This document shows, piece after piece, positions 18,843 to 50,238 of a stretch of 64,000 bases of DNA; the first letter of the stretch is position 1; every line of letters starts with the position of its first letter. The stretch lies in assembly GCA_024277355.1 (NCBI GenBank), contig JAJRVL010000011.1, positions 34,155 through 98,154 on the forward strand, written 5' to 3'. Both the position numbers and the translations under genes were made by a program. Under the pieces are notes generated by a model that saw only the letters and a program-made list of their open reading frames with translations, was not told the origin of the DNA and did no database searches. The DNA comes from an archaeon (GTDB lineage Archaea; Iainarchaeota; Iainarchaeia; Iainarchaeales; 1-14-0-10-31-34).

Positions 18843-18888
18843 AAATTAAAAAGAATAAATAACTAAATATAACAACAGGTAATTAAAA

Positions 18889-20655: not shown

Positions 20656-20659
20656 TTAA

Positions 20660-32681: not shown

Positions 32682-34535
32682 TTGAAAAAGATGTATTTAA
32701 TTAAAGAAAACAAAGACAAAAAATATTTGGTTTTATCAGGGAATAAAGGATTTTATTTAAGGTATTTAGATAATGGATTTAAAACTAAATGGACTGGTTT
32801 ATGGAAAGATTCAGTGAAATATTTAGAATATTTTGCAGTCAAAGGCTTAGAAGAAGAAAAATGCATTAAAACAGAATACACTTATGGAAAAGCAGTTTAT
32901 TATTACAAAGGAATAACAGAAACAAACTTAATTCCAAAAAACAAAACAGGTTTATACATAAAACTTGAGTTTGGGAAAGAAAAACAAACTGAAATAGAAT
33001 TAGCTTTAAATATAAGAAAAAGAGAAGAAAATTTAACTAAAAGAAAATATAAAATAAAATTTAATAAAAAGAAAAAAGAAATAAAAATTTCAAATGAATT
33101 AAGTGCATTAACTTTTTTTTTAATTAAAGGAGAACTTAATTTTCAAGAACAATCTTATGAAAAAATTCATTTTCCTTCAGATGAAAAACAAAACTGCTTT
33201 ATTCCCGGAAAAATTTCAGTTAAAGGAAAAGAAATAATTTTTGGGTTAATCCCAGAAAAAGAAAAAAAATTAAATAAACGAGAAATAGAAAAAGAACTGA
33301 AAAAACAAAAAATTCAAAACAAGAAAACTGAAGAATTAATTAAATGCAGTTCAAAAGAAATAGAAAAAGGATTTATTAATTCAGTTAAGGCAGTTGAACT
33401 GCTTGAAAACAACGGGAATTTTTTTGCTGGTTATCCCTGGTTTCTGCAGTATTGGGGAAGAGATAATTTATGGAGTTTAAATGCATTAATTTCAGCAGGC
33501 AAATTTGAATTAACTGAAAAAGTTTTATTGTATTTCTGGAAAAAAAACAGTAACGGAAAAATACCAAACTTTATTGACGGCAAAAAAGTGTTATTTAATT
33601 CAATTGATGCTTCATTGTTATTTTTAATTTCCCTGCAGAATTATGTTTTTGCTTCAGGAAACAAAAAAATTTTAAAGAAAATTAAATACACTGAAGTGTT
33701 GGATTTTCTTAAATCAAGAGAAGAAAACAAATTGATTTTTCATGAAGGAAATGAAACATGGATGGATTCAATTGAAAGAAAAGGAAAAGCAATTGAAATT
33801 CAAGCACTATATCTTAAAGCACTACATTGTGCAAGGAATTTAATGAAATTAGAAGGAAAAGAAAAAGAAGTTCATTTAACTGAAAAAAAAGCTGTTAACT
33901 TAAACAGGAAAATAATTGAAGAATTTGAAGTTAACGGAGTTTACAGGGATTTAGTTAATGAAAAAAATGAATTCATTAAAACATGCAATCCTTTGGTTTA
34001 TTTAATGGGAAAGAAAGCAGAAGAAAAAGAAATTGCTTTATTTGAATCAGAAGAATTTAATGGACTAAAAGGAATTTTAACAAGAAGCAAAAAAGAACAG
34101 GGATTTGATTCAGAAGGATATCACACAGGATTAAGCTGGAGTTTAATTAACGGCTGGATGAGTTGTGTTGAATTTAAAGCCGAAAAAACAAAAAAAGGAT
34201 TGTTTTATCTACAAAAATTAATTGAAGATTTAAATCAAGATTGTATTGGAGGAATAGGGGAATGCTGGTCTCTTGATGGAAAACTAAAAGGGTGCGGAAT
34301 GCAGTTATGGGGAAATGCTTTTGTAATTAAAATTATCGATGAATTTATGCTAGGAATAAAAATAAATGAATTTGAAAAAAAAGTTTTTTTAAAACCGCAA
34401 TTGCCTGAAAAAATTAATTTAATTAAAAGAAAAATAAGAATTGGAAATACTTGGTTTGAACTTATTGTTGAAAGAAAAAAAAGAAAGGTTTCAGCTAAAA
34501 CAGACAACAAGAAAATTAAAATTGAATTTTATTGA
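32682..34535 (+). CDS. glycogen-debranching-enzyme-like (GDE_C / amylo-alpha-1,6-glucosidase-type) six-hairpin glycoside hydrolase
   Basis: 617 aa. Hallmark GYPWFLQYWGRDNLWSLNAL matches the WF.dWGRDt.Isl motif of the GDE_C family. Confidence 0.6.
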   Translation: MKKMYLIKENKDKKYLVLSGNKGFYLRYLDNGFKTKWTGLWKDSVKYLEYFAVKGLEEEKCIKTEYTYGKAVYYYKGITETNLIPKNKTGLYIKLEFGKEKQTEIELALNIRKREENLTKRKYKIKFNKKKKEIKISNELSALTFFLIKGELNFQEQSYEKIHFPSDEKQNCFIPGKISVKGKEIIFGLIPEKEKKLNKREIEKELKKQKIQNKKTEELIKCSSKEIEKGFINSVKAVELLENNGNFFAGYPWFLQYWGRDNLWSLNALISAGKFELTEKVLLYFWKKNSNGKIPNFIDGKKVLFNSIDASLLFLISLQNYVFASGNKKILKKIKYTEVLDFLKSREENKLIFHEGNETWMDSIERKGKAIEIQALYLKALHCARNLMKLEGKEKEVHLTEKKAVNLNRKIIEEFEVNGVYRDLVNEKNEFIKTCNPLVYLMGKKAEEKEIALFESEEFNGLKGILTRSKKEQGFDSEGYHTGLSWSLINGWMSCVEFKAEKTKKGLFYLQKLIEDLNQDCIGGIGECWSLDGKLKGCGMQLWGNAFVIKIIDEFMLGIKINEFEKKVFLKPQLPEKINLIKRKIRIGNTWFELIVERKKRKVSAKTDNKKIKIEFY

Positions 34536-34620
34536 AAAAAAATAATAGAAATAAAATTGCATTAATCAAAAAAAAGTTAATTAAAATAAAGTGAAATAAA
34601 AAAAAGTTAAAGTAATTTTT

Positions 34621-35988
34621 CTAAAAATCAATTTTAACGCAGTCAAATTCATTTAGTTTCTGCCTGAATTTAGATTTAATTTCCTCTAATTCGTTTTGAG
34701 TTTTTGCTTCAAATCTTAATACTAAAACAGGCTGAGTGTTTGATGCACGAACTAAACCCCATCCATTATCAAATAAAACTCTTGCTCCGTCAATGTCAAT
34801 TACTTTATGATTTTTCTTAAAGTATTCTCCTACTATTTTAACTACTTCAAATTTTTTTTCATCTGAACAATCTACTCTGATTTCAGGAGAAGAAAAATAT
34901 TTTGGGGCATCAGATAATAATTCAGATAATTTTTTATCTGAATTTGAAAGAATTCTTAAAATTCTTGCTGAAGCATAAATTGCATCATCAAAACCAAAAA
35001 ATTCATCTCTGAAAAACATATGCCCTGACATTTCTCCTGCAATTAAAGCATGTTCTTCAATCATTTTTGCTTCAATAATACTGTGCCCAGTTGGAGATAA
35101 AATTGGAATTCCATTATGGTTTTTGATGTCTTCAATTAAAGCCTGAGAGCATTTAACTTCAACTAAAATTTTTGATTCAGGTTTTTTTGCTAATAATTCC
35201 CTTGAAAATAAAATCAATAACTGGTCTCCCCATAAAATTACTCCTTTGTCATCAACTACTCCAATTCTATCTGCATCTCCATCTAATGCAATTCCAATAT
35301 CTGCATTAGAATCTTTTACTTTTTTAATTAAGTCAGTTAAAGTTTCAGGCAAAGTTGGATCAGGATGATGATTAGGAAAAGTGCCGTCAGAAACACAATA
35401 TAATTCCTGTAATTCAACTCCTAAACTGTTTAAGATTTTTGGAGCAATAACAGATCCTACTCCATTACCACAGTCTAAAACTACTTTTAATTTTTTATTT
35501 AAAGAAACTTTTTCTTTAATCATTTCAGCATAAATATCTAAAATTTCTGTTTTTTTTATGCTTCCTTCTCCTTTAAGAAATTCATCTTTTTCCATTAAAT
35601 GCATTATTTTCTGGATTTCTTCTCCAAAAATTGCATGGTTTTCTTTGGAAATCTTAAAACCGTTAAATTCAGATGGGTTATGTGAACCTGTAATCATTAC
35701 TCCTCCTGAAGCCTTAAAATGCACTACAGAAAAATAATAAGCAGGAGTAGGAACTAAACCTACATCAATTACATCAATTCCAGTTGAAACTAATCCACGA
35801 ATTAAATGCTTTGAATAAGAAGGAGAAGAAGGCCTGTTATCATAACCTACAACAGCTGATTTTCCTCCGCTTTTAATTATATAAGTTCCTACAGCTTTAC
35901 CTAAAGCTTCAGCAAAATCCCCATTTAAATCTTTATTGACTAAACCTCTGATATCATATTGCCTGAAAATATTCTGATTAACTTTCAT
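34621..35988 (-). CDS. phosphoglucomutase/phosphomannomutase
   Basis: 455 aa. Active-site ITGSHNPSEFNGFK, Mg-binding DGDADR, sugar-binding GEMSGH. Confidence 0.85.
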   Translation of the reverse strand: MKVNQNIFRQYDIRGLVNKDLNGDFAEALGKAVGTYIIKSGGKSAVVGYDNRPSSPSYSKHLIRGLVSTGIDVIDVGLVPTPAYYFSVVHFKASGGVMITGSHNPSEFNGFKISKENHAIFGEEIQKIMHLMEKDEFLKGEGSIKKTEILDIYAEMIKEKVSLNKKLKVVLDCGNGVGSVIAPKILNSLGVELQELYCVSDGTFPNHHPDPTLPETLTDLIKKVKDSNADIGIALDGDADRIGVVDDKGVILWGDQLLILFSRELLAKKPESKILVEVKCSQALIEDIKNHNGIPILSPTGHSIIEAKMIEEHALIAGEMSGHMFFRDEFFGFDDAIYASARILRILSNSDKKLSELLSDAPKYFSSPEIRVDCSDEKKFEVVKIVGEYFKKNHKVIDIDGARVLFDNGWGLVRASNTQPVLVLRFEAKTQNELEEIKSKFRQKLNEFDCVKIDF

Positions 35989-36031
35989 TCAAAACCAATA
36001 GAAATATAAAAACCAAAGCATTAAAGACATT

Positions 36032-37018
36032 ATGGAAGCAAACGAACTGAGAAAAGATTACTTAATGGATGAATGGTCAATTATATCCAAAAACCGTTCT
36101 TCACGCCCTTTTGATCATAAAACATCAGAAAAATTAAAAGAAACAGAAAAAATTGAAGTGGATGTAAACTGCCCTTTTTGTTTAGGAAATGAAAAACAGA
36201 CTCCTCCTGAAATTTTCAGAACAGGAAGCAAAATTAAATGGAATTTACGGGGATTTGCAAACAAATTTTCTGCAATGCAGACAGAAAAAGAATTTTCAAT
36301 TCAAAAAAAAGGGTTGCTTGAATTTGATGATGCTTTTGGTTATCATGAAGTAATAGTTGAAACAAATAATCATTCAAAAGAATTAGCTGAATTAAATAAA
36401 CAGGAAATGACTGAATTATTTACTGCATACCAAGAAAGAGAAAACAAATTAAAGAAAAGAAAGGGAGTAAAACATGTTTTAATAATAAAAAATTTCGGCA
36501 AAGAATGCGGGGCTTCATTAAGGCATAATCATTCACAATTAATTACTTTTCCTTTTGTTCCTCCAAAAATTGAATTAGAAATAAAAAAAGCAGAAGAATT
36601 TTTTAAAGAAAAAGGAAAAAACGTTTTTTTGGAAATAACTGAAACTGAAAGCAAAACAGAAAGAAAAGTATTTGAAAACGAAAATTTTGTTGCTTTTACT
36701 GCTTTTGCACCTAAATGGACTTATGAAACATGGATTACCCCAAAAAAACAATTTTCTAATTTAAGTGAAATGGATGAAAAAACATTGAAAGATTTAGGAG
36801 AAATAACTGAATTTGTTTTAAAAAAAATAAAGAAAAATTTAGGCAATGCTTCATATAATTATTTTTTGCATGAATCAATGACACAAAATAAAGCTTATTG
36901 TTTTCATTTGAAAATCCAGCCAAACGTCAAAAAAATTTACGGCGGAATAGAAAAAGCTTCAGATATAATTTTAATTGAAGTTTCTCCGGAACAAGCAGCA
37001 GAAGAACTAAGGAAATGA
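36032..37018 (+). CDS. GalT-like (galactose-1-phosphate uridylyltransferase family, HIT superfamily) nucleotidyl transferase/phosphorylase
   Basis: 328 aa. Zn-site CPFCLGNE and catalytic H-x-H-x-Q (LRHNHSQL). Confidence 0.6.
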   Translation: MEANELRKDYLMDEWSIISKNRSSRPFDHKTSEKLKETEKIEVDVNCPFCLGNEKQTPPEIFRTGSKIKWNLRGFANKFSAMQTEKEFSIQKKGLLEFDDAFGYHEVIVETNNHSKELAELNKQEMTELFTAYQERENKLKKRKGVKHVLIIKNFGKECGASLRHNHSQLITFPFVPPKIELEIKKAEEFFKEKGKNVFLEITETESKTERKVFENENFVAFTAFAPKWTYETWITPKKQFSNLSEMDEKTLKDLGEITEFVLKKIKKNLGNASYNYFLHESMTQNKAYCFHLKIQPNVKKIYGGIEKASDIILIEVSPEQAAEELRK

Positions 37019-37087
37019 AAACCTTAATCCATTAAATTTAATAAAAGAAAGAACAGATTATTAGTGGAAAAACTGTTTTGTGATTAA

Positions 37088-38869
37088 ATGGATTATGTTG
37101 TATTAGAAGCAAGCTATGAAGTAGCAAACAAAGTTGGCGGAATACATACAGTTTTAACAAGCAAATCAGCAAGAATGCAGGAAAAAATTCCTGAATTTTA
37201 TGAGATTGGACCTTACTACAAAAAAAAAGCACAAGTAGAATTTGAAGAAAAAGAAATTCCAAATAAATTTCATAAAACTTTTGTTGAAATGGAAAAAGAA
37301 TTAGGAATAAAATGCTATTATGGAAACTGGGTTGTAGCAGAAAAATCTCCAAATTGTATTTTAATTGACCATTTAAACTTAAAGAAAAAAACAAATGAAA
37401 TAAAAAAAGAGTTATGGGATGCATTTAAAATTGATTCAATGGGAACAGACGAATGGTTTAACGAACCGGTAATCTGGAGCAAAGCAGTCGGTTTACTAAT
37501 AGAAAAACTAGAAAAAAATAAAGTTTTTGGAAATAAAAAAATTGTTTCACATTTTCATGAATATTTAAGCGGAACAGGATTACTGCATTTAAAAAAAATT
37601 AAAAGCAAAACAAAAACGGTTTTTACAACTCATGCAACAGTTTTAGGAAGAACAATAGCTGAATCAAGAAAACAGGATTTATATGAATTAATTGAAAAAG
37701 GATTTAAAGAAAAACAAACTGCATCAAATGAATTAGCTTATTCTTATGGAGTTCAGTCAAAACATTTATTAGAAAAAGCATGTGCATTAAATGCTGATGT
37801 ATTTACTTCAGTAAGCAAAGCAGTAGCAAAAGAATCAGAATTTATTTTAGGAAAAAAATGCGATTTAATTCTGCCTAATGGATTAGATTTAGATAAATTT
37901 CCAATAATGGAAGACTTAAGTATTTTACATAAACAATACAGAGACAGAATAAGGCATTTTATTGAAGCATATTTTTATCCATATTATTATTTTGACATAA
38001 AAAAAACTTTGTTTTATTTTATTGCGGGAAGATATGAATTCCACAACAAAGGAATAGACTTGTTTATTGATGCCTTAGGAGAATTAAATAAAGAACTAAA
38101 AAAACAGAAATCAGATTTAAAAATAATTGCTTTTATCTGGATTGCAGAAGAAACAACAGCAAGAAATTTAGCTGTAATGGAAAACATGGTAATACACCAA
38201 ACCATAGAAGATTTAATGGAAAGAGAACTGCCTAATATTCAAAGACAATTATTTAGAAATTTAATGGAAGGCCAAAAACTGGAAACAAATTTATTTGAAA
38301 AAGACTTTTTATTAAATTCAAAAAAAATGGCTTTAAGATTAAAAAGCAAAAAAGAAGTTTTGCCTCCAATAAGTGCATTTGAAACAAGAGAAAATGAAAT
38401 ATTAAAATCAATTAAAAGAAATAATTTATTAAACAAAGAAGAAGACAAAGTCAAAATCATTTATTATCCAACTTATTTAAGTACTGCAGATGGATTAATC
38501 GGATTAAATTATTATGAAGCAATAATCGGATCACATTACGGAATTTTTCCTTCTTATTATGAACCCTGGGGTTATACTCCATTAGAAACTGCTGCTTTAG
38601 CTGTTCCTTCTGTGACAACAGATTTAGGAGGATATGGGCAGTTTATTGAAGAAACATTAGGAAAAAAAGCTGAAGGAAGTATTCAGGTATTAAAAAGAAA
38701 AGGAAAAACATACAAAGAAGAAGTAAAAGAAATGAAAAATAAAATGAAAGATATTTATTTAATGACAAAACAGCAGAGAATGCAGAAAAAAATTAATGCA
38801 AAAGAATATTCTTTTTTGGCTGACTGGCGAAACTTAATTGAAAATTACATTAAAGCATATGAAAGCTAA
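37088..38869 (+). CDS. glycogen synthase, GT3 (eukaryotic-type) family
   Basis: 593 aa. N-terminus VLEASYEVANKVGGIHTVLTSKSARM...FYEIGPYY aligns with eukaryotic glycogen synthase (FEVAWEVANKVGGIYTVL.SKA...LIGP). Confidence 0.65.
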   Translation: MDYVVLEASYEVANKVGGIHTVLTSKSARMQEKIPEFYEIGPYYKKKAQVEFEEKEIPNKFHKTFVEMEKELGIKCYYGNWVVAEKSPNCILIDHLNLKKKTNEIKKELWDAFKIDSMGTDEWFNEPVIWSKAVGLLIEKLEKNKVFGNKKIVSHFHEYLSGTGLLHLKKIKSKTKTVFTTHATVLGRTIAESRKQDLYELIEKGFKEKQTASNELAYSYGVQSKHLLEKACALNADVFTSVSKAVAKESEFILGKKCDLILPNGLDLDKFPIMEDLSILHKQYRDRIRHFIEAYFYPYYYFDIKKTLFYFIAGRYEFHNKGIDLFIDALGELNKELKKQKSDLKIIAFIWIAEETTARNLAVMENMVIHQTIEDLMERELPNIQRQLFRNLMEGQKLETNLFEKDFLLNSKKMALRLKSKKEVLPPISAFETRENEILKSIKRNNLLNKEEDKVKIIYYPTYLSTADGLIGLNYYEAIIGSHYGIFPSYYEPWGYTPLETAALAVPSVTTDLGGYGQFIEETLGKKAEGSIQVLKRKGKTYKEEVKEMKNKMKDIYLMTKQQRMQKKINAKEYSFLADWRNLIENYIKAYES

Positions 38870-38880
38870 TAATTTTTAAT

Positions 38881-38990
38881 AAAACCTTTTTGAAAAGTTT
38901 GTTTTTGCAAAGCAAACTAATTTTTGATAAACCTTTTTTTTTAAAAAGATTTTTTTGATAAAACTTTTTCTGAAAAAGTTTTTTATTCAG
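38881..38990. promoter_or_regulatory. cluster of T-rich dyad-symmetric elements (cttttt-N-aaaaag x3) between convergent genes; probable bidirectional terminator or binding sites
   Basis: cctttttgaaaagttt, acctttttttttaaaaagatttttt and actttttctgaaaaagtttttt read directly from the sequence. Confidence 0.3.
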
Positions 38991-39177
38991 TTAAATAAAA
39001 CTTGTTTTTTGAGATTCCAATTTTTCCTTCTCTTGCAAGCCAGCCTAAAGCAGCAAAAACATGTTCTGATTTAAGTTTAGTTGCTTTTTTTAACTGAACT
39101 GCATTCATTGGTTTTTTGTTGTTTAATACATTCCATACAGTTCCTGCTTTGCTTCCAAAATATTCATTTGATTCCAT
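38983..39177 (-). CDS. small winged-helix DNA-binding protein
   Basis: 64 aa. KPMNAVQLKKATKLKSEHVFAALGWLAREGKI is a wHTH-like recognition helix and wing. Confidence 0.4.
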   Translation of the reverse strand: MESNEYFGSKAGTVWNVLNNKKPMNAVQLKKATKLKSEHVFAALGWLAREGKIGISKNKFYLTE

Positions 39178-39234
39178 TTTATGCCCTCCTAAGAAAGTTA
39201 ATTCATTAATATTGTAAAAAATAAATTATTAAAT

Positions 39235-40404
39235 CTATTGCAATCTTTGCTTTAAATCAGCTAAAACATTAGCATAATTCAAAAAAGATTCATAAGGAGA
39301 ATCATAAGGATTGAAATATTTATGCACGTCTCCGTCAGCAAACCATTTAGTGCACATATAATAAAAATGATCTGAAATCTGCAGTTTTCTCCAGTCCTGA
39401 ATTAACTTTGGGTTTCTTGAAGCTAAAATTTTTTCTTCTAAAGATTTAATTTCGTTAAATGCCTGCTGCTGCATTTGATTTTCAAGCCATGCAGATAAAT
39501 CTCTGTCAACATCAGCCCAAGAAGAAATATAAGGAACATCAAATTCTCCTACAACAGGAAAATCATTAATTATTTCTGAAGCAGTAGCAAACTCTAATTT
39601 TTTTGTTTTAAACATTTCTTTTGGAAGATGCTTTAAAAAATTAAATATTCCTGTTGACTCCCATTGATGTTCACCAAAAGTTTCATAATCCATAAATAAA
39701 TTAATGCAATGCCCTTTGTTTTGTGAAAGCCATAAAGCATATTTATCAGCAGTTAAAGGCCATTCATTCCAGTCTCTTGAAGAAAAACGAAAAGCAATAT
39801 CATCTGAAAGCTTGTAATTTCTTAACAAAACTTTAATATTTGAATTTTTAGCTTTGTAAACATAATTAGGGGAACGCCAACCTAAAACAGAAGTTAAACC
39901 TTCAGATACAATTCCTTTAAAATTCATTTCTTCTGCTGCTTTAGCTATTTCATTTGAATACATTGCTTCAGTGTTACGGAAAATTTTTGGTTTAACTCTA
40001 AAAACTTTCTTGAATTTCTTTGAATGCATTTTAACTTGTTTTACAAATTCTTTTTGTGAAACTAAATAAGCTAAAGAATGATAATAAGTTTCATCAAATA
40101 ATTCAACGTTCCCGGAATCAACTAATTTCTGAAATGATTCAACTACTTCAGGAAAATGTTCTTCTAATTGATCTAAAAAAACTCCTGTAATGCTGAAACA
40201 AAATTTAAATTTGTCTCCGTGTTTTTCAATTAAATCCAGTAAAATTTTGTTTGTTGGGAGATAACATTTATTTGAAACTCTTTCTAAATAAAATTTATTT
40301 GCCAAATCATCAAAATAATTATTGTTTTTTCCTATGTCAAACAAAGAATAATTCCTTAAACGCAAAGGCTGATGAACATGAAAATAAAGACAAACTGCAG
40401 GCAT
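39235..40404 (-). CDS. glycoside hydrolase family 57 (alpha-glucan-active) enzyme
   Basis: 389 aa. N-terminal LYFHVHQPLRL is typical of GH57. Confidence 0.65.
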   Translation of the reverse strand: MPAVCLYFHVHQPLRLRNYSLFDIGKNNNYFDDLANKFYLERVSNKCYLPTNKILLDLIEKHGDKFKFCFSITGVFLDQLEEHFPEVVESFQKLVDSGNVELFDETYYHSLAYLVSQKEFVKQVKMHSKKFKKVFRVKPKIFRNTEAMYSNEIAKAAEEMNFKGIVSEGLTSVLGWRSPNYVYKAKNSNIKVLLRNYKLSDDIAFRFSSRDWNEWPLTADKYALWLSQNKGHCINLFMDYETFGEHQWESTGIFNFLKHLPKEMFKTKKLEFATASEIINDFPVVGEFDVPYISSWADVDRDLSAWLENQMQQQAFNEIKSLEEKILASRNPKLIQDWRKLQISDHFYYMCTKWFADGDVHKYFNPYDSPYESFLNYANVLADLKQRLQ

Positions 40405-41654
40405 TAAACAACCTCTTTGTAAATTTCAAGGCATTGATCTGCAACAGAACCCCAACTAAAAGACTGAAGTTCAGTAAAAGCATTATGTTTTAGTTCATGC
40501 GAAAGAGAACCATGTTCTAATACCCCAATTATTTTATTTGTTAATTGATTTACATCCCAAAAATCAACTTTAAAGCAATGATTAATCACTTCACTTACTC
40601 CTGATTGTTTTGAAATAATCACAGGATTCTTAGAAGCCATTGCCTCTAATGCAGTCAAACCAAAAGGCTCTGAAACAGAAGGCATAACAAACAAATCTGC
40701 AATAGAATAAAATTGTTTTACATTGTCTTGAAAACCAGAAAAAGAAATTTTATCTGAAATGCCCATTGCAATAGCTTTATTGATTAAAGAAGAAAGCATG
40801 TCTCCGTCTCCAACAATAACAAAACGAGTATTAGGTTTAAATTGAAGAACTTGATATGCTGCTTCAAGAAACCAGTCAGGACCTTTTTGAATAGTTAATC
40901 TTCCTAAAAACAAAACAACTTTTTCATTTAAAGCAAAATTAGAATTATCCACGATATAACTTGATTTATCTATTCCATTGTATACTACTTGAATTTTTTG
41001 TTCAGGAATATTATATCTTTCAATTAACTGGTTTTTCATGTAATTGCTTATTGTAATTACTTTATCTGCTTCAATTAAGCCGTTTCTTTCAACTTTACAG
41101 ATTTTTTCATTAGGAAACTGATTTCCTGTCCTGTCAAATTCAGTTGAATGAATAGTAACAATTAAGGGCTTGTTTTTTGCTTTTTTTAATGCAATTCCTG
41201 CAGGAAAAGTCATCCAATCATGACAATGGATTACATCACAAGGTTTTGAAGTCATTTTTTTCACTGCAGAAACAGTATAACTTTTAACTTTAGAGAAAAA
41301 ATCCATTCCATAAGCATTAATGTTTTTTTCAGCTTCATGCCTTTCAAGATCACTTTTAACTTCCTCAGAATAAATAATGTTATTTGAAGGAGAATAAGGA
41401 TGAAAATCAAAGCCTTCAATTTCAATTAAATCTAAATGAGCATAATCTTCTGCCTGAACAACTTCAATAAAACCCGGATTAATTTTTACGCCAGTAGAAG
41501 GCATAACAAAAGTAACTTTAGTTCCTTTTTTAGATAAAGCTTTAGTAAAACCAAATAAATAAGTGCCTAAACCTCCAGATTTAAATGGAGGAAACTCCCA
41601 ACCAAGCATTAAAACATTCATATAATCAACCACTAACCTGCATGATTTTCTCAT
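40404..41654 (-). CDS. GT-B glycosyltransferase, archaeal/bacterial-type glycogen (starch) synthase-like (GT5/GT4)
   Basis: 416 aa. The likely start is the internal MNVLMLGWEFPPFKSGGLGT (K-x-GGL motif). C-terminal SEPFGLTALEAMASKNPVI. Confidence 0.6.
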   Translation of the reverse strand: MRKSCRLVVDYMNVLMLGWEFPPFKSGGLGTYLFGFTKALSKKGTKVTFVMPSTGVKINPGFIEVVQAEDYAHLDLIEIEGFDFHPYSPSNNIIYSEEVKSDLERHEAEKNINAYGMDFFSKVKSYTVSAVKKMTSKPCDVIHCHDWMTFPAGIALKKAKNKPLIVTIHSTEFDRTGNQFPNEKICKVERNGLIEADKVITISNYMKNQLIERYNIPEQKIQVVYNGIDKSSYIVDNSNFALNEKVVLFLGRLTIQKGPDWFLEAAYQVLQFKPNTRFVIVGDGDMLSSLINKAIAMGISDKISFSGFQDNVKQFYSIADLFVMPSVSEPFGLTALEAMASKNPVIISKQSGVSEVINHCFKVDFWDVNQLTNKIIGVLEHGSLSHELKHNAFTELQSFSWGSVADQCLEIYKEVV

Positions 41655-41775
41655 AATTGTGCAGTTGGGTTACTAAAAAAACACAAGTCAATACTGCAAG
41701 GTAATATATGGGCTTAAGTTAAATAAAAGAGTTTGTGTTTGGAAAAATTAACCAAAAAAATAAAACAAAAAAAGA

Positions 41776-41788
41776 TTTATACATAATT
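41776..41788 (+). promoter_or_regulatory. promoter-like TATA/BRE motif tttatacataatt ~45 bp upstream of the PfkB kinase gene
   Basis: One of >=10 copies of the TTTATACATAA(T/C) motif found upstream of gene starts in this window. Confidence 0.4.
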
Positions 41789-41831
41789 TTACACAAAAAC
41801 AATAAATACAATTACTTCGTATTCTTAAAGA

Positions 41832-42788
41832 ATGAAACCAAAAATTGCTTGTATTGGTTCTGCTACAGAAGACATTTTTGTTAAAACAGATGAATTTCAT
41901 TTCAGAAAAGACAAAACCCATAAAGGAACAGATTTATGCCTTAAATTAGGCAAAAAATTTGATATAGATGAAATTCACTTTGATTTTGGCGGAGGGGCAT
42001 TAAATACTTCTTTAGGATTTAAAAAAATGGGTTTTGACACAAATGTACTGGTTTCTTTAGGAAATGATTCAACTGCAAAAAAAATTGAAATAATTCTTAA
42101 AATGGAAAAAATTAATTTAATTAAAGTTCAGTCAGACAAAGAAACCGGTTTTTCAATTATATTCAGGAAACCTAAAGGAGACAGAACAATAATGACTTAC
42201 CGAGGAGCAAACAATAAATGGAATGAAAAAGAAGTTGAATGGAATAAACTAAAAAAAATGAACTGGATTTACCTTTGTTCATTTGGAACTAATATTAAGT
42301 TTTTAGAAAAAATTGCTTTTTTCTGCAAAAAACACAAAATCAAATTAGTCTTTAATCCTGGTTTATCTCAAAGAAAACTTAAATTAGACAAAATGAAAAA
42401 CATAGTAAAAAACTGTTATTCAATAATTTTGAATAAAGAAGAAATAACTGAATGGACAAAAAAAAGAAATGAAATGGATGCAATGAGAGAATTAAATGAA
42501 TTAGGAACAAAAATTATTGTGACAACAGACGGAAGAAAAGGAAGTTCTGCTTTTAATGGAAAAAAGTTTTTTAAACAAAAAGGATTTGATGTAAAAAGAG
42601 AAGATGTAACAGGAGCAGGAGATGCTTTTTCTGTTGGATTTATTGCAGGAATGGAAAAGAAAAAAAACATTAAAGACGCATTAAAAATTGGAACAGCTAA
42701 TGCCTGTTCAACTATAACTAAAATCGGCGCACACAACGGAATATTATCTTTTCCTAAATCAGAAGAATTTGTAAAAAAACATCAATGA
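41832..42788 (+). CDS. PfkB-family carbohydrate kinase
   Basis: 318 aa. C-terminal VTGAGDAFSVGFIAGM is the PfkB signature 2. N-terminal IGSATEDIFV. Confidence 0.7.
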   Translation: MKPKIACIGSATEDIFVKTDEFHFRKDKTHKGTDLCLKLGKKFDIDEIHFDFGGGALNTSLGFKKMGFDTNVLVSLGNDSTAKKIEIILKMEKINLIKVQSDKETGFSIIFRKPKGDRTIMTYRGANNKWNEKEVEWNKLKKMNWIYLCSFGTNIKFLEKIAFFCKKHKIKLVFNPGLSQRKLKLDKMKNIVKNCYSIILNKEEITEWTKKRNEMDAMRELNELGTKIIVTTDGRKGSSAFNGKKFFKQKGFDVKREDVTGAGDAFSVGFIAGMEKKKNIKDALKIGTANACSTITKIGAHNGILSFPKSEEFVKKHQ

Positions 42789-43164: not shown

Positions 43165-43563
43165 ATGAAATTCTTTGAAGATTTAATTAAAAAACTAAAA
43201 AAAGAAACTAAATTTTTGTTTAACGGAATGAATACATATGAACTGCAGAGAACTAAAGGAAGCGAGTGTGCTGCAGTATTGTTAAGCGAAGTAAAACATT
43301 CTGATCATTATTTTTATTTGGATTCCAGTATTGCAATTAAAAGTTTATGCGAATTATCCGACCATTTACAGGAAATGGATGCAGAAACATTCAGTAAACA
43401 TGTAAATGAAGAAAAAAATGATTTTAGTGCGTGGGTTTCAAATACAATTGGCGACAAGACTTTAGGAAAAAAAATGAATGAATTAAAAGAACAGGATGAA
43501 ATTGCCAAAGCAGTTGAAATTAGAGTTAATTACATTAAAAGAAGAGCACAAAATAATTACTGA
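43165..43563 (+). CDS. hypothetical protein
   Basis: 132 aa. No recognisable motifs. Confidence 0.3.
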   Translation: MKFFEDLIKKLKKETKFLFNGMNTYELQRTKGSECAAVLLSEVKHSDHYFYLDSSIAIKSLCELSDHLQEMDAETFSKHVNEEKNDFSAWVSNTIGDKTLGKKMNELKEQDEIAKAVEIRVNYIKRRAQNNY

Positions 43564-43968: not shown

Positions 43969-46602
43969 TTACTTTTTTTCTTTTATTTTTGCCTGAGCTG
44001 CAGCTAATCTTGCAATTGGAACCCTAAAAGGCGAACAAGAAACATAACTTAAACCTAAAGAATGACAGAATTCAATTGAAGCAGGATCTCCTCCGTGTTC
44101 CCCGCAGATTCCTAACTTAATATTTTCTTTTGCTTTTTTTGCATGACCTACTGCAATTTCCATTAATTTTCCTACTCCTGAAATATCAACTGAAACAAAA
44201 GGAGAAACAGAAAAAATTTTTTCTTCAAAATATTTATTGAAAAATTTTCCTTCAACATCGTCTCTAGAAAAACCAAAAGTAGTCTGAGTTAAATCATTTG
44301 TTCCAAAAGAAAAAAAATCCGCATGCTCTGCAATTTCATCTGCAGTTAAAGCAGCTCTAGGTAATTCAATCATTGTCCCAATAGGAATATTATTTTCAGG
44401 AATTAAATCAGATAAAACTTTTTCTACTTTTTTTCTTGACAATTCAAGTTCTTTTGCTATTCCAACTAAAGGAATCATTATTTCAGGTTTAGGTGAAAGC
44501 CCTTTATTTTTCAAATTTAATGCAGCTTCAGCTATTGCTCTGGTTTGCATTTCAATTATTTCAGGATAAACTATTCCAATCCTGCATCCTCTAAAACCAA
44601 GCATTGGGTTAACTTCATGTAATTCTTTTATTTTAATTAATAAAGCTTTTTTTACTGCAATTTCTTCTAAAACGTCAGAGTTATTTAAATCTCTTTTTCT
44701 TTTTAATCGGTTTATTTCTCTTAATAATTTTTCTTTTGAAGGCAAAAATTCATGTAAAGGAGGATCAATTAAACGAATTGTAACAGGAAAGCCATCCATT
44801 GCCTCAAAAATTTCTTCAAAATCTTTTCTCTGCATTTTTTCTAATTCATCTAAATGTTTTTTTCTTTCATCAAAAGAAGAACTTAAAATCATTTTCTGAA
44901 CAATAGGAAGTCTTTTAGCGTCAAAAAACATGTGTTCAGTTCTGCATAAGCCGATTCCTTTAGCTCCTAATTCAACTGCTTTTTTTGCGTCTTTTGGAGT
45001 ATCAGCATTAGTTCTTACTCCTAAAGTTTTAATTTCATCACTCCATTCAAGAATAGTAGAAAAAAACTTATATGGTTCAGGTTCAATTAATTTAATTTCC
45101 CCTAAAAAAACTTTTCCTGTTGTACCGTCAATTGAAATAAAATCTCCTTGATTTAATTCAGTTCCCTCAACTTTAAGGGTTTTAGTTGAATAATCAATTT
45201 TTATTTCTTCGCATCCAACAACACAAGGTTTGCCCATTCCTCTTGCAACAACAGCAGCATGAGAAGTGTTTCCTCCTCTGCAAGTTAAAATTCCTTTTGA
45301 TGCAATCATTCCATGAATATCTTCAGGAGAAGTTTCATGTCTGACTAAAATTACGTTTCCTTTTTCGCTTTCTTTTTCAGCTGTATTTGCATCAAAAAAC
45401 ATTCTCCCTGATGCAGCCCCGGGAGAAGCATTTAACCCTAAAGCAATTTCATTTAATTTTTGTTTTGGGTCAATTCTTTTATGGAGCAGTTGATTTAAAT
45501 CTAAAGGATTAATTCTCAGTAAAGCTTCTTGTTTTGAAATTAGTTTTTCTTCAACTAATTCAACTGCAATTCTAACTGCTGCCTGACCGGTTCTTTTTCC
45601 GTTTCTGGTCTGCAGTAAAAATAATTTTTTGTCTTCAATAGTAAATTCAGTGTCCTGCATGTCTTTGTAGTGTTTTTCTAATTTTTCGCATACAGACTTA
45701 AATTCTTCAAAAACTTCAGGCATTACTTCATTTAATTCAGCAATTATTCTTGGAGTACGGATTCCTGCAACAACATCCTCGCCTTGAGCATTTAACAAAA
45801 ATTCTCCATATAATTTTTTTATTCCATTAGAAGGGTTTCTGGTAAAACACACTCCTGTCCCTGAAGTTTCGCCTAAATTTCCAAAAACCATTTCCTGAAT
45901 TACTACTCCAGTTCCCCATGAATCAGGAATTTTATTTAATTTACGATAAGTTATTGCTCGTTTATTATTCCATGAATTAAATACAGCCTTAACCGCTAAA
46001 ATTAATTGTTGTTTTGGTTCTTCAGGAAAAGTGTTTTTTGTTTCTTGTTCAACTAAATTTTTGTATTCTTTAATTATTTTTTTTAGTGATTCAGCAGTTA
46101 AATCACAGTCTTTTGTTGTTTCTGTATTTTGTTTTTCTTTTTCTAAGATTTCTTCAAATTTATCGTGTTCTAAATTTAATACAACATTAGAAAACATCTG
46201 AATAAATCTTCTGTAAGAATCTAATACAAATCTTTCATTTTTTGTTTTTTCAATCATTGATTTAATTGTTTTTTCATTTAATCCAAGATTTAATACTGTA
46301 TCCATCATTCCAGGCATTGAGGTTCTTGCACCACTTCTAACTGAAACTAATAAGGGGTTTTCTCCTGAAAACTGTTTTTTTGTTTGTTTTTCTAATTGCA
46401 TTAAAGAGTCATTTAATTCTTGTTCTAATCCTTCAGGGAAATCATTTGAATCAAAAAAATTAATACAAGCTTGAGTTGAAATCACAAAACCTTTAGGGAC
46501 AGGCAAACCTAATTTAGTCATTTCACATAAATTGCTTCCTTTTCCTCCTAAAAGGTTTTTCATTTCTTTGCTTCCTTCCTCAAAAAAATAAATATACTTC
46601 AA
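43969..46602 (-). CDS. ppdK: pyruvate, phosphate dikinase
   Basis: 877 aa. N-terminal LLGGKGSNLCEM, phospho-His domain GGNTSHAAVVARGMGKPCVVG, C-terminal PEP-utilising TIM barrel with CGE. Confidence 0.9.
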   Translation of the reverse strand: MKYIYFFEEGSKEMKNLLGGKGSNLCEMTKLGLPVPKGFVISTQACINFFDSNDFPEGLEQELNDSLMQLEKQTKKQFSGENPLLVSVRSGARTSMPGMMDTVLNLGLNEKTIKSMIEKTKNERFVLDSYRRFIQMFSNVVLNLEHDKFEEILEKEKQNTETTKDCDLTAESLKKIIKEYKNLVEQETKNTFPEEPKQQLILAVKAVFNSWNNKRAITYRKLNKIPDSWGTGVVIQEMVFGNLGETSGTGVCFTRNPSNGIKKLYGEFLLNAQGEDVVAGIRTPRIIAELNEVMPEVFEEFKSVCEKLEKHYKDMQDTEFTIEDKKLFLLQTRNGKRTGQAAVRIAVELVEEKLISKQEALLRINPLDLNQLLHKRIDPKQKLNEIALGLNASPGAASGRMFFDANTAEKESEKGNVILVRHETSPEDIHGMIASKGILTCRGGNTSHAAVVARGMGKPCVVGCEEIKIDYSTKTLKVEGTELNQGDFISIDGTTGKVFLGEIKLIEPEPYKFFSTILEWSDEIKTLGVRTNADTPKDAKKAVELGAKGIGLCRTEHMFFDAKRLPIVQKMILSSSFDERKKHLDELEKMQRKDFEEIFEAMDGFPVTIRLIDPPLHEFLPSKEKLLREINRLKRKRDLNNSDVLEEIAVKKALLIKIKELHEVNPMLGFRGCRIGIVYPEIIEMQTRAIAEAALNLKNKGLSPKPEIMIPLVGIAKELELSRKKVEKVLSDLIPENNIPIGTMIELPRAALTADEIAEHADFFSFGTNDLTQTTFGFSRDDVEGKFFNKYFEEKIFSVSPFVSVDISGVGKLMEIAVGHAKKAKENIKLGICGEHGGDPASIEFCHSLGLSYVSCSPFRVPIARLAAAQAKIKEKK

Positions 46603-46743: not shown

Positions 46744-47760
46744 ATGAAAAAAATAAGTATTTTAGGTTCAACCGGAAGCATCGGAACACAGACTTTAGAT
46801 GTAGTAAGACAGCATTCTGATGAATTCAAAGTTTTAGGGTTAGCTGCGTTTAATGAAATAGACAAAATAATTGAACAAATTAATGAATTTAAGCCGGAAA
46901 AAGTCTGTTTGTTTGATGAAAAATCAGCTGAAGAGTTAGCAAAAAAAACTGATGTTGAAGTTGTTTCAGGGATGCAGGGATTAAAAGAAATTGCAGTAAT
47001 AGAAGAAATTGAGCAGACAATTGTTTCAGTTGTAGGTGCAATAGGAATTGAGCCGACAATGCATGCAATAAAAAAAGGAAAAAATATTGCTTTAGCAAAT
47101 AAAGAAACTTTAGTTTCAGCAGGACAGCCAATAATGAAAGAAGTCAAAAAACAAGGAATTGTATTAATGCCAATTGATTCAGAGCATTCAGCTATATTTC
47201 AATGTTTGAATGGAGAGGAAAGAAAAAAAGTTTCAAAAGTTTTAATTACTTGTTCTGGCGGGCCGTTTAGAGGGAAAAAAATTTCTGATTTTTATAATGC
47301 AACTCCTGAACAGGCTTTAGGACATCCAACATGGAGTATGGGTTCAAAAATTACAATTGATTCTTCAACTTTAATGAATAAAGGCCTGGAAGTATTGGAA
47401 GCAAAATGGCTGTATGATTTAGAATTAGAAGAAATTGAAGTAGTAATTCATCCTCAAAGTTTAATTCATTCAATGGTTGAATTTACTGACGGGAGTATTA
47501 TGGCTCAAATTGGAACACACGATATGCGTACTCCCATCCAATATGCTTTAACTTATCCAAAAAGATTAACAAATGAATTTCCAAGATTAAATTTATTTGA
47601 AAACAATAATTTAACTTTTGAAAAACCTGATTACAAAAATTTTCCGTGTTTAGGTTTTGCTTTTGAAGCAGGAAAACAAAAAGGAACTTTAGCTTCAGCA
47701 ATGAATGCAGCAAATGAAATTGCTGTCTGGAGTTTTTTAGATAAAAAAATCAAGTACTGA
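46744..47760 (+). CDS. dxr: 1-deoxy-D-xylulose 5-phosphate reductoisomerase, interrupted by an in-frame TGA (C-terminal 41 codons continue to 47889)
   Basis: ILGSTGSIGTQTLDV NADPH motif. NAANEIAVWSFLDKKIKY*EIPEIIKQVMDLHK aligns across the stop with E. coli Dxr [32 protein letters not shown]. Confidence 0.75.
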   Translation: MKKISILGSTGSIGTQTLDVVRQHSDEFKVLGLAAFNEIDKIIEQINEFKPEKVCLFDEKSAEELAKKTDVEVVSGMQGLKEIAVIEEIEQTIVSVVGAIGIEPTMHAIKKGKNIALANKETLVSAGQPIMKEVKKQGIVLMPIDSEHSAIFQCLNGEERKKVSKVLITCSGGPFRGKKISDFYNATPEQALGHPTWSMGSKITIDSSTLMNKGLEVLEAKWLYDLELEEIEVVIHPQSLIHSMVEFTDGSIMAQIGTHDMRTPIQYALTYPKRLTNEFPRLNLFENNNLTFEKPDYKNFPCLGFAFEAGKQKGTLASAMNAANEIAVWSFLDKKIKY

Positions 47761-47998
47761 GAAATCCCGGAAATAATTAAACAAGTAATGGATTTACATA
47801 AAAATACTTTAAATCCTTCTTTAGAGGATTCACTTGAAGCAGATAAAAAAGCAAGAGAAACAGCAAAAAAAATAATAGAAGAAAAATGAGAAAAAATGAA
47901 AAAACAGCAGAGTATTCAGTTATTCAGTAATTGATAATTTAATAAACAAAACAAAAAGAAATTTAAGCATTAAAAGAGTTTAATTACAAAGTGATGAA

Positions 47999-48688
47999 AT
48001 GAATTATGCAGTAATTTGTGCCGGCGGAAAAGGAATAAGAATGGACGCCGGAAAAAACAAAGTGTTCTTAAAAATTAAAGGCAAAGAAATAATTGCAAAA
48101 ACTATTTTAGTGTTTGAAAAAGCAAAAGAAATAAACGGAATAATTATTTCAATTGGAAAGAATGACATAAAAGAAATACAGGAAATAATTGAAAAAGAAA
48201 AATTTGAAAAAATTAAAGCAGTAATTGAAGGTGGAAAAGAAAGACAGGATTCCGTTTATAATGGAATAAAAAAATTACAGGAATTTGCAGAAAAAGATGA
48301 CGTGATTTTAATTCATAATGCAGCAAACCCTTTTGTAAAAGAAGAAACAATAAACAACTGCATTAAAGCAGCAAAAGAATTTGGAGCAAGTGTTGCAGCA
48401 CAAAAAGTAAAAGACACAATAAAAAAAGTTGATGAAGATTTATTAGTTAAAAAAACATTAAACCGAAAAGAATTATGGCAAATGCAGACTCCGCAGGCAA
48501 TAATTAACCACATTGCATTAAAAGCATTTGAAAAAGCTTATTCAGAAAACTTTTATGGAACAGATGACGTTCAGTTAGTTGAAAGAATTCATGGAAAAAT
48601 AAAAATAGTTGAATGTTCATATAAAAACATTAAAATTACAACAAAAGAAGATATAGAATTAGCAGAAAGAATTTTAGATGAAAACTGA
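47999..48688 (+). CDS. ispD: 2-C-methyl-D-erythritol 4-phosphate cytidylyltransferase
   Basis: 229 aa. N-terminal AVICAGGKGIRMDAGKNKVFLKIKGKEII matches the IspD P-loop (AAGxGxRM...K.FL). Confidence 0.75.
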   Translation: MNYAVICAGGKGIRMDAGKNKVFLKIKGKEIIAKTILVFEKAKEINGIIISIGKNDIKEIQEIIEKEKFEKIKAVIEGGKERQDSVYNGIKKLQEFAEKDDVILIHNAANPFVKEETINNCIKAAKEFGASVAAQKVKDTIKKVDEDLLVKKTLNRKELWQMQTPQAIINHIALKAFEKAYSENFYGTDDVQLVERIHGKIKIVECSYKNIKITTKEDIELAERILDEN

Positions 48689-48703
48689 TTAAAATGAAAA
48701 AAA

Positions 48704-49555: not shown

Positions 49556-49597
49556 ATTAATAGTTAGATAAAAAAAAAAGCAACAATATAAAAAGGA

Positions 49598-49611
49598 TTT
49601 TATACATAATT
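49598..49611 (+). promoter_or_regulatory. promoter-like motif ttttatacataatt ending ~13 bp before the ispF ATG (leaderless-type spacing)
   Basis: TATA-like element begins 25 nt upstream of ATG 49624. Confidence 0.45.
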
Positions 49612-49623
49612 TTAGTGAGAGTT

Positions 49624-50145: not shown

Positions 50146-50238
50146 ATAAATTCGTTCTTTGACGTAATATGCTTGTTAAATCAACGTAAGGTTTAAATAG
50201 TTTGAGCTATAATATTGGTATTTCGGGAAAAGATTTTT

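Follow-up and report, generated by a model that had tools for sequence, protein, structure and literature searches.

A predicted glycogen synthesis and turnover locus with GT3 and GlgA-like transferases in a DPANN archaeon

Positions 32682-42788 of the window (the whole 64-kb stretch of DNA analysed here) probably form, judging from the encoded protein families, a locus for the synthesis and turnover of glycogen (an alpha-1,4/1,6-glucan) in a tiny DPANN archaeon related to Micrarchaeota/Iainarchaeota. The predicted operon-like core consists of a GlgA-like transferase, a GH57 enzyme, one or more DUF5752 proteins, a GT3 synthase, a GalT-like enzyme and a GDE-like hydrolase. This core is common to many DPANN archaea and CPR bacteria, and the cluster is of a known kind, with predicted biochemistry: both the GT3 glycogen synthases of DPANN archaea and the GT4-GH57-GH133 clusters of other archaea are already in the literature. 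No enzyme of the module has been assayed from any DPANN or CPR organism (PMC11046441), and cultured nanohaloarchaea express enzymes for glycogen synthesis and catabolism (10.1101/794461).

An earlier note on this DNA had described seven carbohydrate-enzyme ORFs from a DPANN archaeon and read them as a glycogen/alpha-glucan cluster. All seven are present at these positions, and the HMM-based family assignment that it proposed, carried out with Pfam and NCBIfam, gives carbohydrate-enzyme domains in each of them; the domain calls for all genes bear out the metabolic reading. The DPANN origin is likewise supported by the nearest GT3 homologues, which are named Micrarchaeota and Diapherotrites, and by archaeal markers in the window (DTD2, a DHH-CID GAN-like nuclease and KaiC-like ATPases).

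The module across DPANN and CPR genomes

The surroundings of GT3 genes were compared in 54 related DPANN/CPR loci, with 26 GT3 loci of Planctomycetota, Bacteroidota and Leptospiraceae as a contrast; two close relatives of the window, L081 and L082, were counted apart from the 54. This synteny comparison, suggested by the earlier note, shows that the exact gene order is kept in L081 (80% identity between the GT3 proteins) and that the core recurs beside GT3 in most of the 54 loci. The clustering is therefore not due to chance. Genes for GH57 and GT4/5 proteins occur near GT3 in 36 loci each, followed by GDE (31), DUF5752 (22) and GalT (17), while the 26 contrast loci contain none of these five genes, except for one weak GT4/5-like match (L080). 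Carrying two synthase types side by side had been considered unusual; within DPANN/CPR it is the rule, as GT3 adjoins the transferase-GH57 pair in 36 of the 54 loci. The gap between transferase and GH57 genes is at most 10 nt in 12 of 25 loci, and in related loci the GalT-like gene lies directly downstream of GT3, with a median gap of 12 nt. Further recurrent neighbours are glycogen-related or glycolytic: NTP_transferase (5 loci), GH15 (7) and TIM (6).

Comparable arrangements are found outside this group. In Picrophilus torridus, as in the window, the gene of a GT4-annotated transferase has a GH57 gene and one for a GH133-type hydrolase as neighbours, and in Methanoculleus a GT4 gene is nested among glgB and GH57 genes; the authors describing these clusters offer the speculation that GT4 encodes a glycogen synthase still to be characterised (PMC11046441). 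The Rv3032/Rv3031 pair of Mycobacterium tuberculosis, in which a GT4-annotated transferase again adjoins a GH57 gene, provides a precedent for a GT4 alpha-1,4-glucosyltransferase in this setting (PMC2674218). The likeness to these three systems is one of arrangement, and the window module differs in that DUF5752 proteins, a GalT-like enzyme and a GT3 synthase also belong to it.

Two synthase-type transferases and their GH57 partner

Sequence and structure comparison shows the GT3 protein (37088..38869, plus strand) to be homologous to eukaryotic glycogen synthase over its full length, with the catalytic site intact. The GT3 call of the earlier note is firm: PF05693 matches with 452.6 bits (3e-135) over profile positions 1-578 of 639, and the glycogen synthases of C. 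elegans, human and yeast are matched over their full length (1e-100 to 1e-94). The protein has >5000 homologues. Compared with human GYS1, yeast Gsy2p and C. elegans GSY-1 it is collinear (residues 4-590 against human 28-608, 1e-99), and it shares the donor and catalytic motifs K-V-G-G-I, HxHE, TTHAT-LGR, GRYEFxNKG and E-X7-E. Invariant residues among 18 DPANN homologues are K15, G17, G18, H155, H157, E158, T180, T181, H182, R315, K321, E492 and E500. R582 and R586 of the human glucose-6-phosphate-sensing arginine cluster correspond to R564 and K568 of the window protein; in the yeast structure the residues at these two positions contact glucose-6-phosphate. Unlike its eukaryotic counterparts, the window protein (593 aa) is without phosphoregulatory tails at either terminus and has four of the six cluster arginines replaced (by K, Q, N and E), and its gene shares an operon-like module with those of a second transferase, a GH57 enzyme and a GalT-like enzyme. 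The other closest system is the uncharacterised DPANN 'GlgA-GT3' group, and DPANN archaea are not known to have glycogenin (PMC11046441).

The second transferase (40404..41618, minus strand, in an ORF extending to 41654) probably starts at ATG 41618, giving 404 aa, because its homologues are ~395-405 aa long and span 96-97% of the ORF. It had been labelled GT5. Its nature as a retaining GT-B enzyme is shown by sequence and structure comparison (PF00534, PF13439, PF08323), whereas membership of GT5 is not secure, the protein lying at the GT4/GT5 border. Nor are the two synthases non-homologous, as had been stated, since hhalign aligns their families with 95.5% probability over 278 columns. The nearest systems are the Pyrococcus abyssi glycogen synthase (GT5; PDB 2bis/3fro), which has the highest identity among structures (29%), and the mycobacterial maltose-1-phosphate synthase GlgM (GT4; 6tvp). 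These are also the top matches of the family profile, the best being the true glycogen synthase, at full length. Both characterised relatives form alpha-1,4-glucosidic bonds from an NDP-glucose donor, and the protein is a putative alpha-1,4-glucosyltransferase.

The product of Rv3032 is specialised oligoglucans rather than bulk glycogen (PMC4981310), an observation that counts against a glycogen reading of the module. By analogy with Rv3032/Rv3031, the GlgA-like/GH57 pair could make something other than bulk glycogen, such as short or branched specialised oligoglucans, a glucosylated solute or a surface glycan, and stand beside GT3 only through a common use of NDP-glucose. We regard this as improbable: many loci have the pair on the GT3 strand, upstream of that gene, the family profile prefers a true glycogen synthase, and the recurrent neighbours are GT3, GDE, GH15, PGM and NTP-transferase, with no recurrent genes for methyltransferases, acyltransferases or glucosyl-3-phosphoglycerate in the loci.

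The partner of this transferase, the GH57 protein (39235..40404, minus strand; PF03065, 269.7 bits), shows the fold of GH57 together with its catalytic residues, and its fingerprint is that of the 'alpha-amylase' subfamily, whose type member is the Methanocaldococcus jannaschii alpha-amylase (Martinovicova & Janecek 2018, PMC6037648). It resembles this subfamily in its conserved sequence regions (CSR position 1 Q/E, 12 Arg, 23 Thr, 35-36 Tyr-Tyr) and its complete catalytic Glu/Asp pair, is 389 aa long where the subfamily averages 414, and differs from the type in always having a GT-B transferase as its partner. A phmmer search against PDB sequences returned no match, and identity to any solved GH57 structure is at most 20%. 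Both branching-enzyme fingerprints of GH57, HxHLP and ELF(Y)GHW (PMC9291813), are absent, so that a branching role is speculative and simple amylase activity equally possible; the protein is a candidate for either activity. Whether the branching enzyme missing from archaea is to be sought in the GH57 alpha-amylase subfamily has been raised as a question (PMC11046441).

The subfamily fingerprint, which is that of amylases and not of branching enzymes (PMC6037648; PMC9291813), also fits an unlikely alternative, in which both transferases do the same work as glycogen synthases but draw on different donors (GT3 on UDP-glucose, say, and the GlgA-like protein on ADP- or GDP-glucose) and GH57 is a degradative amylase only. 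If this were true, a nucleotide-scavenging symbiont could polymerise any NDP-glucose that it is able to produce. Archaeal GlgA enzymes indeed take ADP-, UDP- and even GDP-glucose, while eukaryotic GT3 enzymes take UDP-glucose (PMC11046441, section 3.4.1), and some loci have the GalT-like enzyme plus NTP_transferase. However, neither translational coupling to a synthase gene nor the highest conservation within the module, equalled by GT4/5, is expected of a purely degradative amylase, and knockout of the GH57 amylase in S. acidocaldarius led to loss rather than accumulation of glycogen (PMC11046441, section 3.4.2). We favour a glycogen pathway in which GT3 would elongate alpha-1,4 chains, and the translationally coupled GlgA-like transferase and GH57 enzyme would represent the older archaeal 'synthase plus GH57' unit, providing primers, a second means of elongation or both, and remodelling or branching the glucan.

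Links to sugar phosphates and central metabolism

Upstream of polymerisation, the PGM/PMM-type alpha-D-phosphohexomutase (34621..35988, minus strand; four PGM/PMM Pfam domains) would interconvert glucose-6-phosphate and glucose-1-phosphate. It scores 495 bits for NCBIfam PgmG, where the cutoff is 600, and 410 bits for Arch_GlmM, where it is 439, so that its sugar specificity is not fixed; besides L081 and L082, six of the 54 loci have such a gene near GT3. The class I GalT-family HIT enzyme (36032..37018, plus strand; GalT N- and C-terminal domains PF01087 and PF02744, and HIT) may then join the glucose-1-phosphate and NDP-glucose pools, most likely by catalysing G1P + NDP <-> NDP-glucose + Pi, the reversible reaction of an NDP-glucose phosphorylase. 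Sequence and structure comparison shows it to be nearest to Arabidopsis At5g18200 (1z84, 8e-49, full length), ahead of the GalT proteins of P. aerophilum (2e-30) and E. coli (2e-19) and human GALT (2e-11). At5g18200 acts as an ADP-glucose phosphorylase, according to McCoy 2006 as cited in PMC6329318. The two proteins have in common the zinc-site cysteines (CxxC) and, in the active site, an HxHxQ motif (H165, H167 and Q169 in the window protein, kept in 94% of 18 homologues). The window protein also scores above the cutoff of NCBIfam galT_1 (TIGR00209, 115 bits against 102), so it may be a true uridylyltransferase. Its gene lies next to a glycogen synthase gene, whereas that of the plant enzyme has no glycogen or starch synthase gene beside it. 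Neither galK nor galE was found among the window ORFs or the recurrent neighbours of related loci. Some two thirds of the 54 loci lack the GalT-like gene, which accompanies NTP_transferase in two of the five loci having the latter. The view being limited to 64 kb, glgC/galU, glgP and glgB may lie elsewhere in the genome.

In degradation, alpha-1,6 stubs would be taken off by the GDE_C/GH133-like hydrolase (32691..34535, plus strand, in an ORF opening with TTG at 32682), which probably starts at ATG 32691 to give 614 aa, the length of the L081 copy. PF06202 matches (105.7 bits, 3e-30) over profile positions 16-222 of 367 only, TIGR01561 gde_arch scores 59 bits, far under its cutoff of 364, and weak PDB matches are to the glucosidase domain of eukaryotic debranching enzyme (5d06, 4e-6). 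Across 31 homologues W250, F251, W255, R257, D258, D306, W357, D359, Y477, H478, W483 and E524 are invariant.

These enzymes could also be arranged into a mainly catabolic route, in which alpha-glucans or nucleotide sugars from a host or the environment pass through GH57 amylase, GDE, NDP-glucose phosphorylase, PGM and kinase to glycolysis, with the transferases playing a minor part. The recurrence of GDE-like, GH15 and PGM genes is in line with it, as are the nanohaloarchaeal amylase and glucoamylases acting on external starch or glycogen (10.1101/794461) and the phosphorolytic direction of the At5g18200-type reaction, yielding G1P and NDP (PMC6329318). It is nonetheless very improbable: the most constant module members are the two synthase-type transferases, and the GH57 and GDE-like translations open directly in conserved catalytic-domain sequence with no leader obvious on inspection.

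In the favoured synthesis-and-turnover reading, PfkB, PPDK, GAPDH, PGK and IMPase/FBPase would tie the polymer to glycolysis and gluconeogenesis in this lineage, and gluconeogenesis feeding glucan storage, as the earlier note suggested, is plausible. Its context genes are all confirmed in the window: PPDK (43969..46602; TIGR01828, 1343.8 bits against a cutoff of 843), pgk (9360-10592), gap (10595-11581) and IMPase (57986-58792), all on the minus strand. PPDK, which adjoins the cluster in L081 too and gives one weak match in the other 54 loci, is context outside the conserved module. The PfkB-family sugar kinase (41832..42788, plus strand; PF00294, 140 bits) is under every NCBIfam cutoff, finds its best PDB matches in a fructokinase (3hj6, 8e-16) and ribokinases, and occupies this cluster position in L081 and L082 and in none of the 54 other loci. 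Having PPDK and PfkB beside the module is a trait of these close relatives alone.

Two small genes of the cluster had been overlooked in the earlier reading. The first (38983-39177, minus strand) encodes a 64-aa DUF2582 winged-helix protein (PF10771, 64.4 bits), a possible local regulator, with a homologue of equal length in the same place in L081. The second (43165-43563, plus strand) encodes a small DUF5752-like protein (PF19027, 23.7 bits, cutoff 23), a putative accessory of the module, and PF19027 is matched by 28 of its 32 homologues from the loci. Those 22 loci with DUF5752 hold 37 copies, 1-3 per locus and mostly between GH57 and GT3. The domain is present in 2035 cluster representatives and is fused to KaiC-like ATPases in some.

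The glycogen locus and its counterparts in DPANN and CPR genomes

The cluster at 32682-42788 is a locus for glycogen synthesis and turnover. The seven carbohydrate-metabolism genes that the earlier note had listed here, on both strands, are present as ORFs, and Pfam and NCBIfam confirm the gene list: a GDE_C protein (PF06202, 3e-30), a PGM/PMM with four domains, a GalT-family protein, a GT3 glycogen synthase (PF05693, 3e-135, nearly the full profile), a GH57 protein (PF03065, 4e-80), a GT-B transferase (40404-41618, minus strand; matches to Glycos_transf_1, Glyco_transf_4 and Glyco_transf_5) and a PfkB kinase, whose substrate was not fixed by NCBIfam and PDB comparisons. Two small genes had been overlooked: a 64-aa DUF2582 winged-helix gene (38983-39177, minus strand), which lies where the GT3 and GH57 genes converge, and a DUF5752-like gene (43165-43563). 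The nearby PPDK, gap, pgk and IMPase-family genes are likewise confirmed in the window, with PPDK passing its equivalog model TIGR01828 at 1343.8 bits (cutoff 843.45). No glgC-, glgP- or glgB-like ORF was found in the window, where every ORF of at least 300 aa was scanned. The window has a G+C content of about 28%, and tRNA and Rfam scans of it gave no matches. Hits in a sigma-70 promoter/terminator scan were fewer or no more numerous than in shuffled sequence, and the sigma-70 model is not meaningful for an archaeon.

Glycogen is thought to free ultra-small symbionts (DPANN archaea, CPR bacteria) temporarily from their hosts. Scanning species-representative genomes with a GT3 alignment gave 80 loci, 54 of them in DPANN archaea and CPR bacteria and the other 26 in Planctomycetota, Bacteroidota and one Leptospiraceae genome. 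Neighbours of GT3 belonging to the gene families of the window were counted by tblastn and ORF clustering. The GlgA-like transferase and GH57 are each found near GT3 in 36 of the 54 DPANN/CPR loci, followed by the GDE-like protein (31/54), DUF5752-like proteins (22/54, 37 copies), the GalT-like protein (17/54) and PGM (6/54). The 26 other bacterial loci showed no member of these families, save for one weak GT4/5-like match (L080). The side-by-side arrangement of two synthases, which had been considered unusual, is therefore common in DPANN and CPR genomes, and the cluster in the window is a typical example rather than an exception.

The usual order, on a single strand, is transferase, GH57, DUF5752 (one or two copies), GT3, GalT and GDE. 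The genes are tightly packed: the gap between transferase and GH57 is at most 10 nt in 12 of 25 loci, the stop codon of the former and the start codon of the latter overlap in the window (TAATG), and the median gap between GT3 and GalT is 12 nt across loci. Other recurring neighbours are GH15 (7 loci), TIM (6 loci), NTP_transferase (5 loci) and winged-helix regulators. Comparison with related genomes, which the earlier note had proposed as a check, bears out the synteny: a close relative of the window locus, L081 (80% GT3 identity), is fully syntenic, including the PfkB, PPDK and MEP genes, and a second one, L082, also retains PfkB and DUF5752 beside the transferase-GH57 pair.

DPANN-type GT3 genes also occur in nine CPR/Patescibacteria loci. 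The order transferase-GH57-GT3-GDE is complete in five of these and partial in the remaining four. In rough neighbour-joining trees, most CPR GT3 and GH57 sequences fall within Woesearchaeota diversity, which suggests that the whole module has moved between archaea and bacteria. Eight further loci come from MAGs labelled Methanosarcinales or Campylobacterales. Their modules are DPANN-type and group with Woesearchaeota or Nanoarchaeota sequences; errors of binning or annotation have probably led to wrong taxonomic labels here.

The two glycosyltransferases

The GT3 assignment is firm, with a full-length family match and conserved motifs. The protein scores 452.6 bits against PF05693 (cutoff 27; residues 7-590, profile positions 1-578 of 639) and aligns end to end with the C. 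elegans, human and yeast glycogen synthases (1e-100 to 1e-94). We examined three catalytic and donor-binding motifs, namely K-x-G-G, the R/K pair and E-X7-E. The corresponding residues (K15, G17 and G18; R315 and K321; E492 and E500) are invariant among 18 DPANN GT3 homologues and line up with the human, yeast and worm enzymes. In contrast to the eukaryotic enzymes, the window GT3 lacks the N- and C-terminal phosphorylation tails (its residues 4-590 correspond to human 28-608). The human arginine cluster R579/580/582/586/588/591 reads K/Q/R/K/N/E, and of these six positions only the equivalents of R582 and R586 (R564 and K568) were counted as basic. The alignment thus gives no sign of eukaryote-style regulation by tails and a six-arginine G6P cluster. 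These features define the eukaryotic regulatory mode, not membership of the GT3 family, in which no archaeal enzyme has been characterised (PMC11046441).

The second transferase had been called GT5, an assignment that is not firm. Its N-terminal region matches the GT5 model PF08323 (83.7 bits, profile positions 1-227 of 239), but the GT4 model PF13439 scores alike (88.5 bits, 59-168 of 170). PF13439 and PF00534 are both above their cutoffs, giving a GT4 architecture, an assignment that rests on Pfam and homologue names. The curated NCBIfam glgA models are missed by a wide margin (TIGR02095, 105.9 vs 328.45 bits; PRK00654 models, 52-64 vs 459-616). Homologues are labelled 'glycosyltransferase family 4 protein' by NCBI and, for some, 'glycogen(starch) synthase' by JGI. 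A profile of the 29-sequence family ranks the GT5 glycogen synthase of P. abyssi first (124 bits, full length), with the GT4 maltose-1-phosphate synthase GlgM next (120 bits); E. coli GlgA is absent among the 60 matches listed. The window protein carries K-S-G-G-L in the K-X-G-G-L region. We rejected this as proof of GT5, because the Lys position varies (K/S/T/N/I/V) across the family and only GGLGT is invariant. Given the similar Pfam scores, missed glgA cutoffs, mixed labels, profile ranking and variable Lys, the enzyme lies, as far as sequence can place it, on the GT4/GT5 border; fold comparison did not separate the two families.

The two synthases had further been described as non-homologous. 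This does not hold, as hhalign relates their families at 95.5% probability over 278 columns with shared motifs aligned. Both nearest characterised relatives of the second transferase form alpha-1,4-glucosidic bonds from NDP-glucose. We hold with lower confidence that the two enzymes are redundant synthases with different donors. In our preferred reading, GT3 would lengthen glucan chains and the second transferase would act together with its coupled partner GH57.

Partner enzymes and a proposed route for glycogen

The GH57 protein has the features of its family, namely a (beta/alpha)7 barrel with helical bundle, five conserved sequence regions (CSRs), a Glu nucleophile and an Asp proton donor. 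A phmmer search of the PDB with the protein found no match, and the family profile reached only 1k1w (8e-7); the profile alignment places E146, the glutamate of FRNTE, opposite E123, which is the nucleophile of the T. litoralis 4-alpha-glucanotransferase. E146, D239, E241, D345 and H346 are invariant in the family. Its CSRs, (Q/H)VHQP, RNTEAM, FMDYETFGEH and LQ(I/T)SDHFYY, fit the 'alpha-amylase' subfamily logo (position 1, E/Q; 12, R/E and not aromatic; 23, T; 35-36, Y-Y) at all four diagnostic positions, with Q/E, R, T and Y-Y (PMC6037648). Neither fingerprint of GH57 branching enzymes, HxHLP in CSR-I and ELF(Y)GHW in CSR-IV (PMC9291813), is present: the protein has HVHQP, with Q for L, and ETFGEHQW, with an additional E and Q. 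An assignment as branching enzyme was set aside since the published fingerprints point to the alpha-amylase subfamily (PMC6037648, PMC9291813). The mismatches lower the claim for a GH57-type branching enzyme, and a branching activity may still be present; fold comparison did not settle the specificity. According to a 2024 review (PMC11046441, section 3.4.2), the alpha-amylase subfamily is kept in all archaea without a classical branching enzyme and a knockout in Sulfolobus loses its glycogen; the review asks whether the missing branching enzyme is to be found in this subfamily. We propose that the transferase and GH57, as a coupled pair, would serve in priming, co-elongation and/or remodelling of the glucan. 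A pair making a separate oligoglucan, as for Rv3032/Rv3031 (PMC2674218, PMC4981310), is an alternative that we give lower confidence.

The GalT-like protein is, judged by PDB scores, much closer to Arabidopsis At5g18200 (1z84; 169.6 bits, 8e-49, full length) than to the true GalTs of P. aerophilum (6k5z, 108.9 bits), E. coli (1hxp, 73) or human (46). According to PMC6329318, At5g18200 works as an ADP-glucose phosphorylase. The HxHxQ motif (H165-N-H167-S-Q169) is found in 94% of 18 homologues, H105 in all, and the window protein has the zinc-site C-P-F-C. It also passes TIGR00209 galT_1 (115.1 vs 102.1 bits), so sequence does not by itself settle between phosphorylase and uridylyltransferase activity. 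Neither galK nor galE, expected near a true Leloir-pathway GalT, was found among the scanned window ORFs or the families that recur across the 54 loci. In five loci, a PF00483 sugar-1-phosphate nucleotidyltransferase with a left-handed beta-helix tail lies directly 5′ of the GDE-like gene; two of these loci have both this gene and the GalT-like one, so neither strictly stands in for the other. The GDE-like protein matches PF06202 at 105.7 bits (cutoff 21) over 56% of the profile and TIGR01561 at 59.4 vs 364, and the conserved acidic and aromatic residues of the family are present.

From these identities we infer a route in which PGM would supply glucose-1-phosphate and the GalT-like enzyme, most likely as a reversible phosphorylase, would connect it with NDP-glucose for chain growth. 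The GDE_C hydrolase would provide the debranching step. We have lower confidence in the module being mainly catabolic.

Across the loci, DUF5752-like proteins occur in one to three copies each, mostly between GH57 and GT3. Their core motif is F..HHVN..KNDF..W; some locus copies have Lys-rich N-termini, and about ten a C-terminal transmembrane helix. We found no mention of DUF5752 in the literature. The domain turns up in 2035 cluster representatives, in some cases as a fusion with KaiC-like ATPases and other proteins, and we downgraded the idea of a glycogen-specific primer or scaffold because of this wide occurrence and these fusions. The DUF2582 gene is conserved in L081, and in other loci the transferase gene is accompanied by small wHTH genes of other kinds; together these are candidate local regulators.

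A more far-reaching and, in our estimate, rather improbable proposal is that the DPANN/CPR operon runs a eukaryote-type GT3 independently of glycogenin. Here, the GlgA-like GT4/5 enzyme would make the primers, the coupled GH57 'alpha-amylase' would be the branching enzyme long sought in archaea, the At5g18200-like HIT enzyme would make NDP-glucose from glucose-1-phosphate and NDP without NTP cost, and DUF5752 proteins, some of them membrane-anchored, would have an organising or regulatory part in the complex. That DPANN metabolise glycogen is established (10.1101/794461), and both their GT3 synthases and, in other archaea, a GT4 gene adjoining GH57 and GH133 have been described (PMC11046441). 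We found no description of how far the module extends across DPANN and CPR, nor of its regular At5g18200-like and DUF5752 genes, and these make the open priming and branching questions testable. For three questions left open in the Chemical Reviews survey of 2024, the module offers concrete candidates: the priming of a prokaryotic GT3 synthase in the absence of glycogenin, the function of the 'GT4' gene adjoining GH57, and the possible role of GH57 'alpha-amylases' as the branching enzyme that archaea seem to lack.

The source genome and other genes in the window

The closest GT3 relatives, at 80-84% identity, bear the label Micrarchaeota or 'archaeon'; next come Diapherotrites at 63% and after them Aenigmarchaeota, Altiarchaeota, Woesearchaeota and Nanoarchaeota. 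The window also holds the archaeal markers DTD2-type deacylase, DHH-CID (GAN-like) nuclease, KaiC-like ATPases and AMMECR1. On these grounds the DPANN assignment stands, despite the bacterial MEP isoprenoid pathway in the window (dxr, ispD, ispF and dxs; 46744-52038). A 283-aa ORF without Pfam match (48704-49555) occupies the expected place of ispE, and a squalene/phytoene synthase lies at 61135-62133. The MEP genes are syntenic in L081, and the genome here is Micrarchaeota/Iainarchaeota-like. The pathway is already known in DPANN, mainly from one Woesearchaeota clade (PMC8204110).

Further bacterial-looking genes in this archaeal genome are a GAPDH of the type I (bacterial/eukaryotic) kind (10595-11581; PF02800, 2.6e-63) and a LeuRS carrying the PF13603 editing domain (4268-6967). 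Finally, the region 14073-23070 encodes a 915-aa LVIVD-repeat and VWA protein and three ORFs without Pfam match (319, 353 and 588 aa), after which come type IV pilus-like ATPase (T2SSE) and membrane (T2SSF) genes; it may be a surface or attachment locus.
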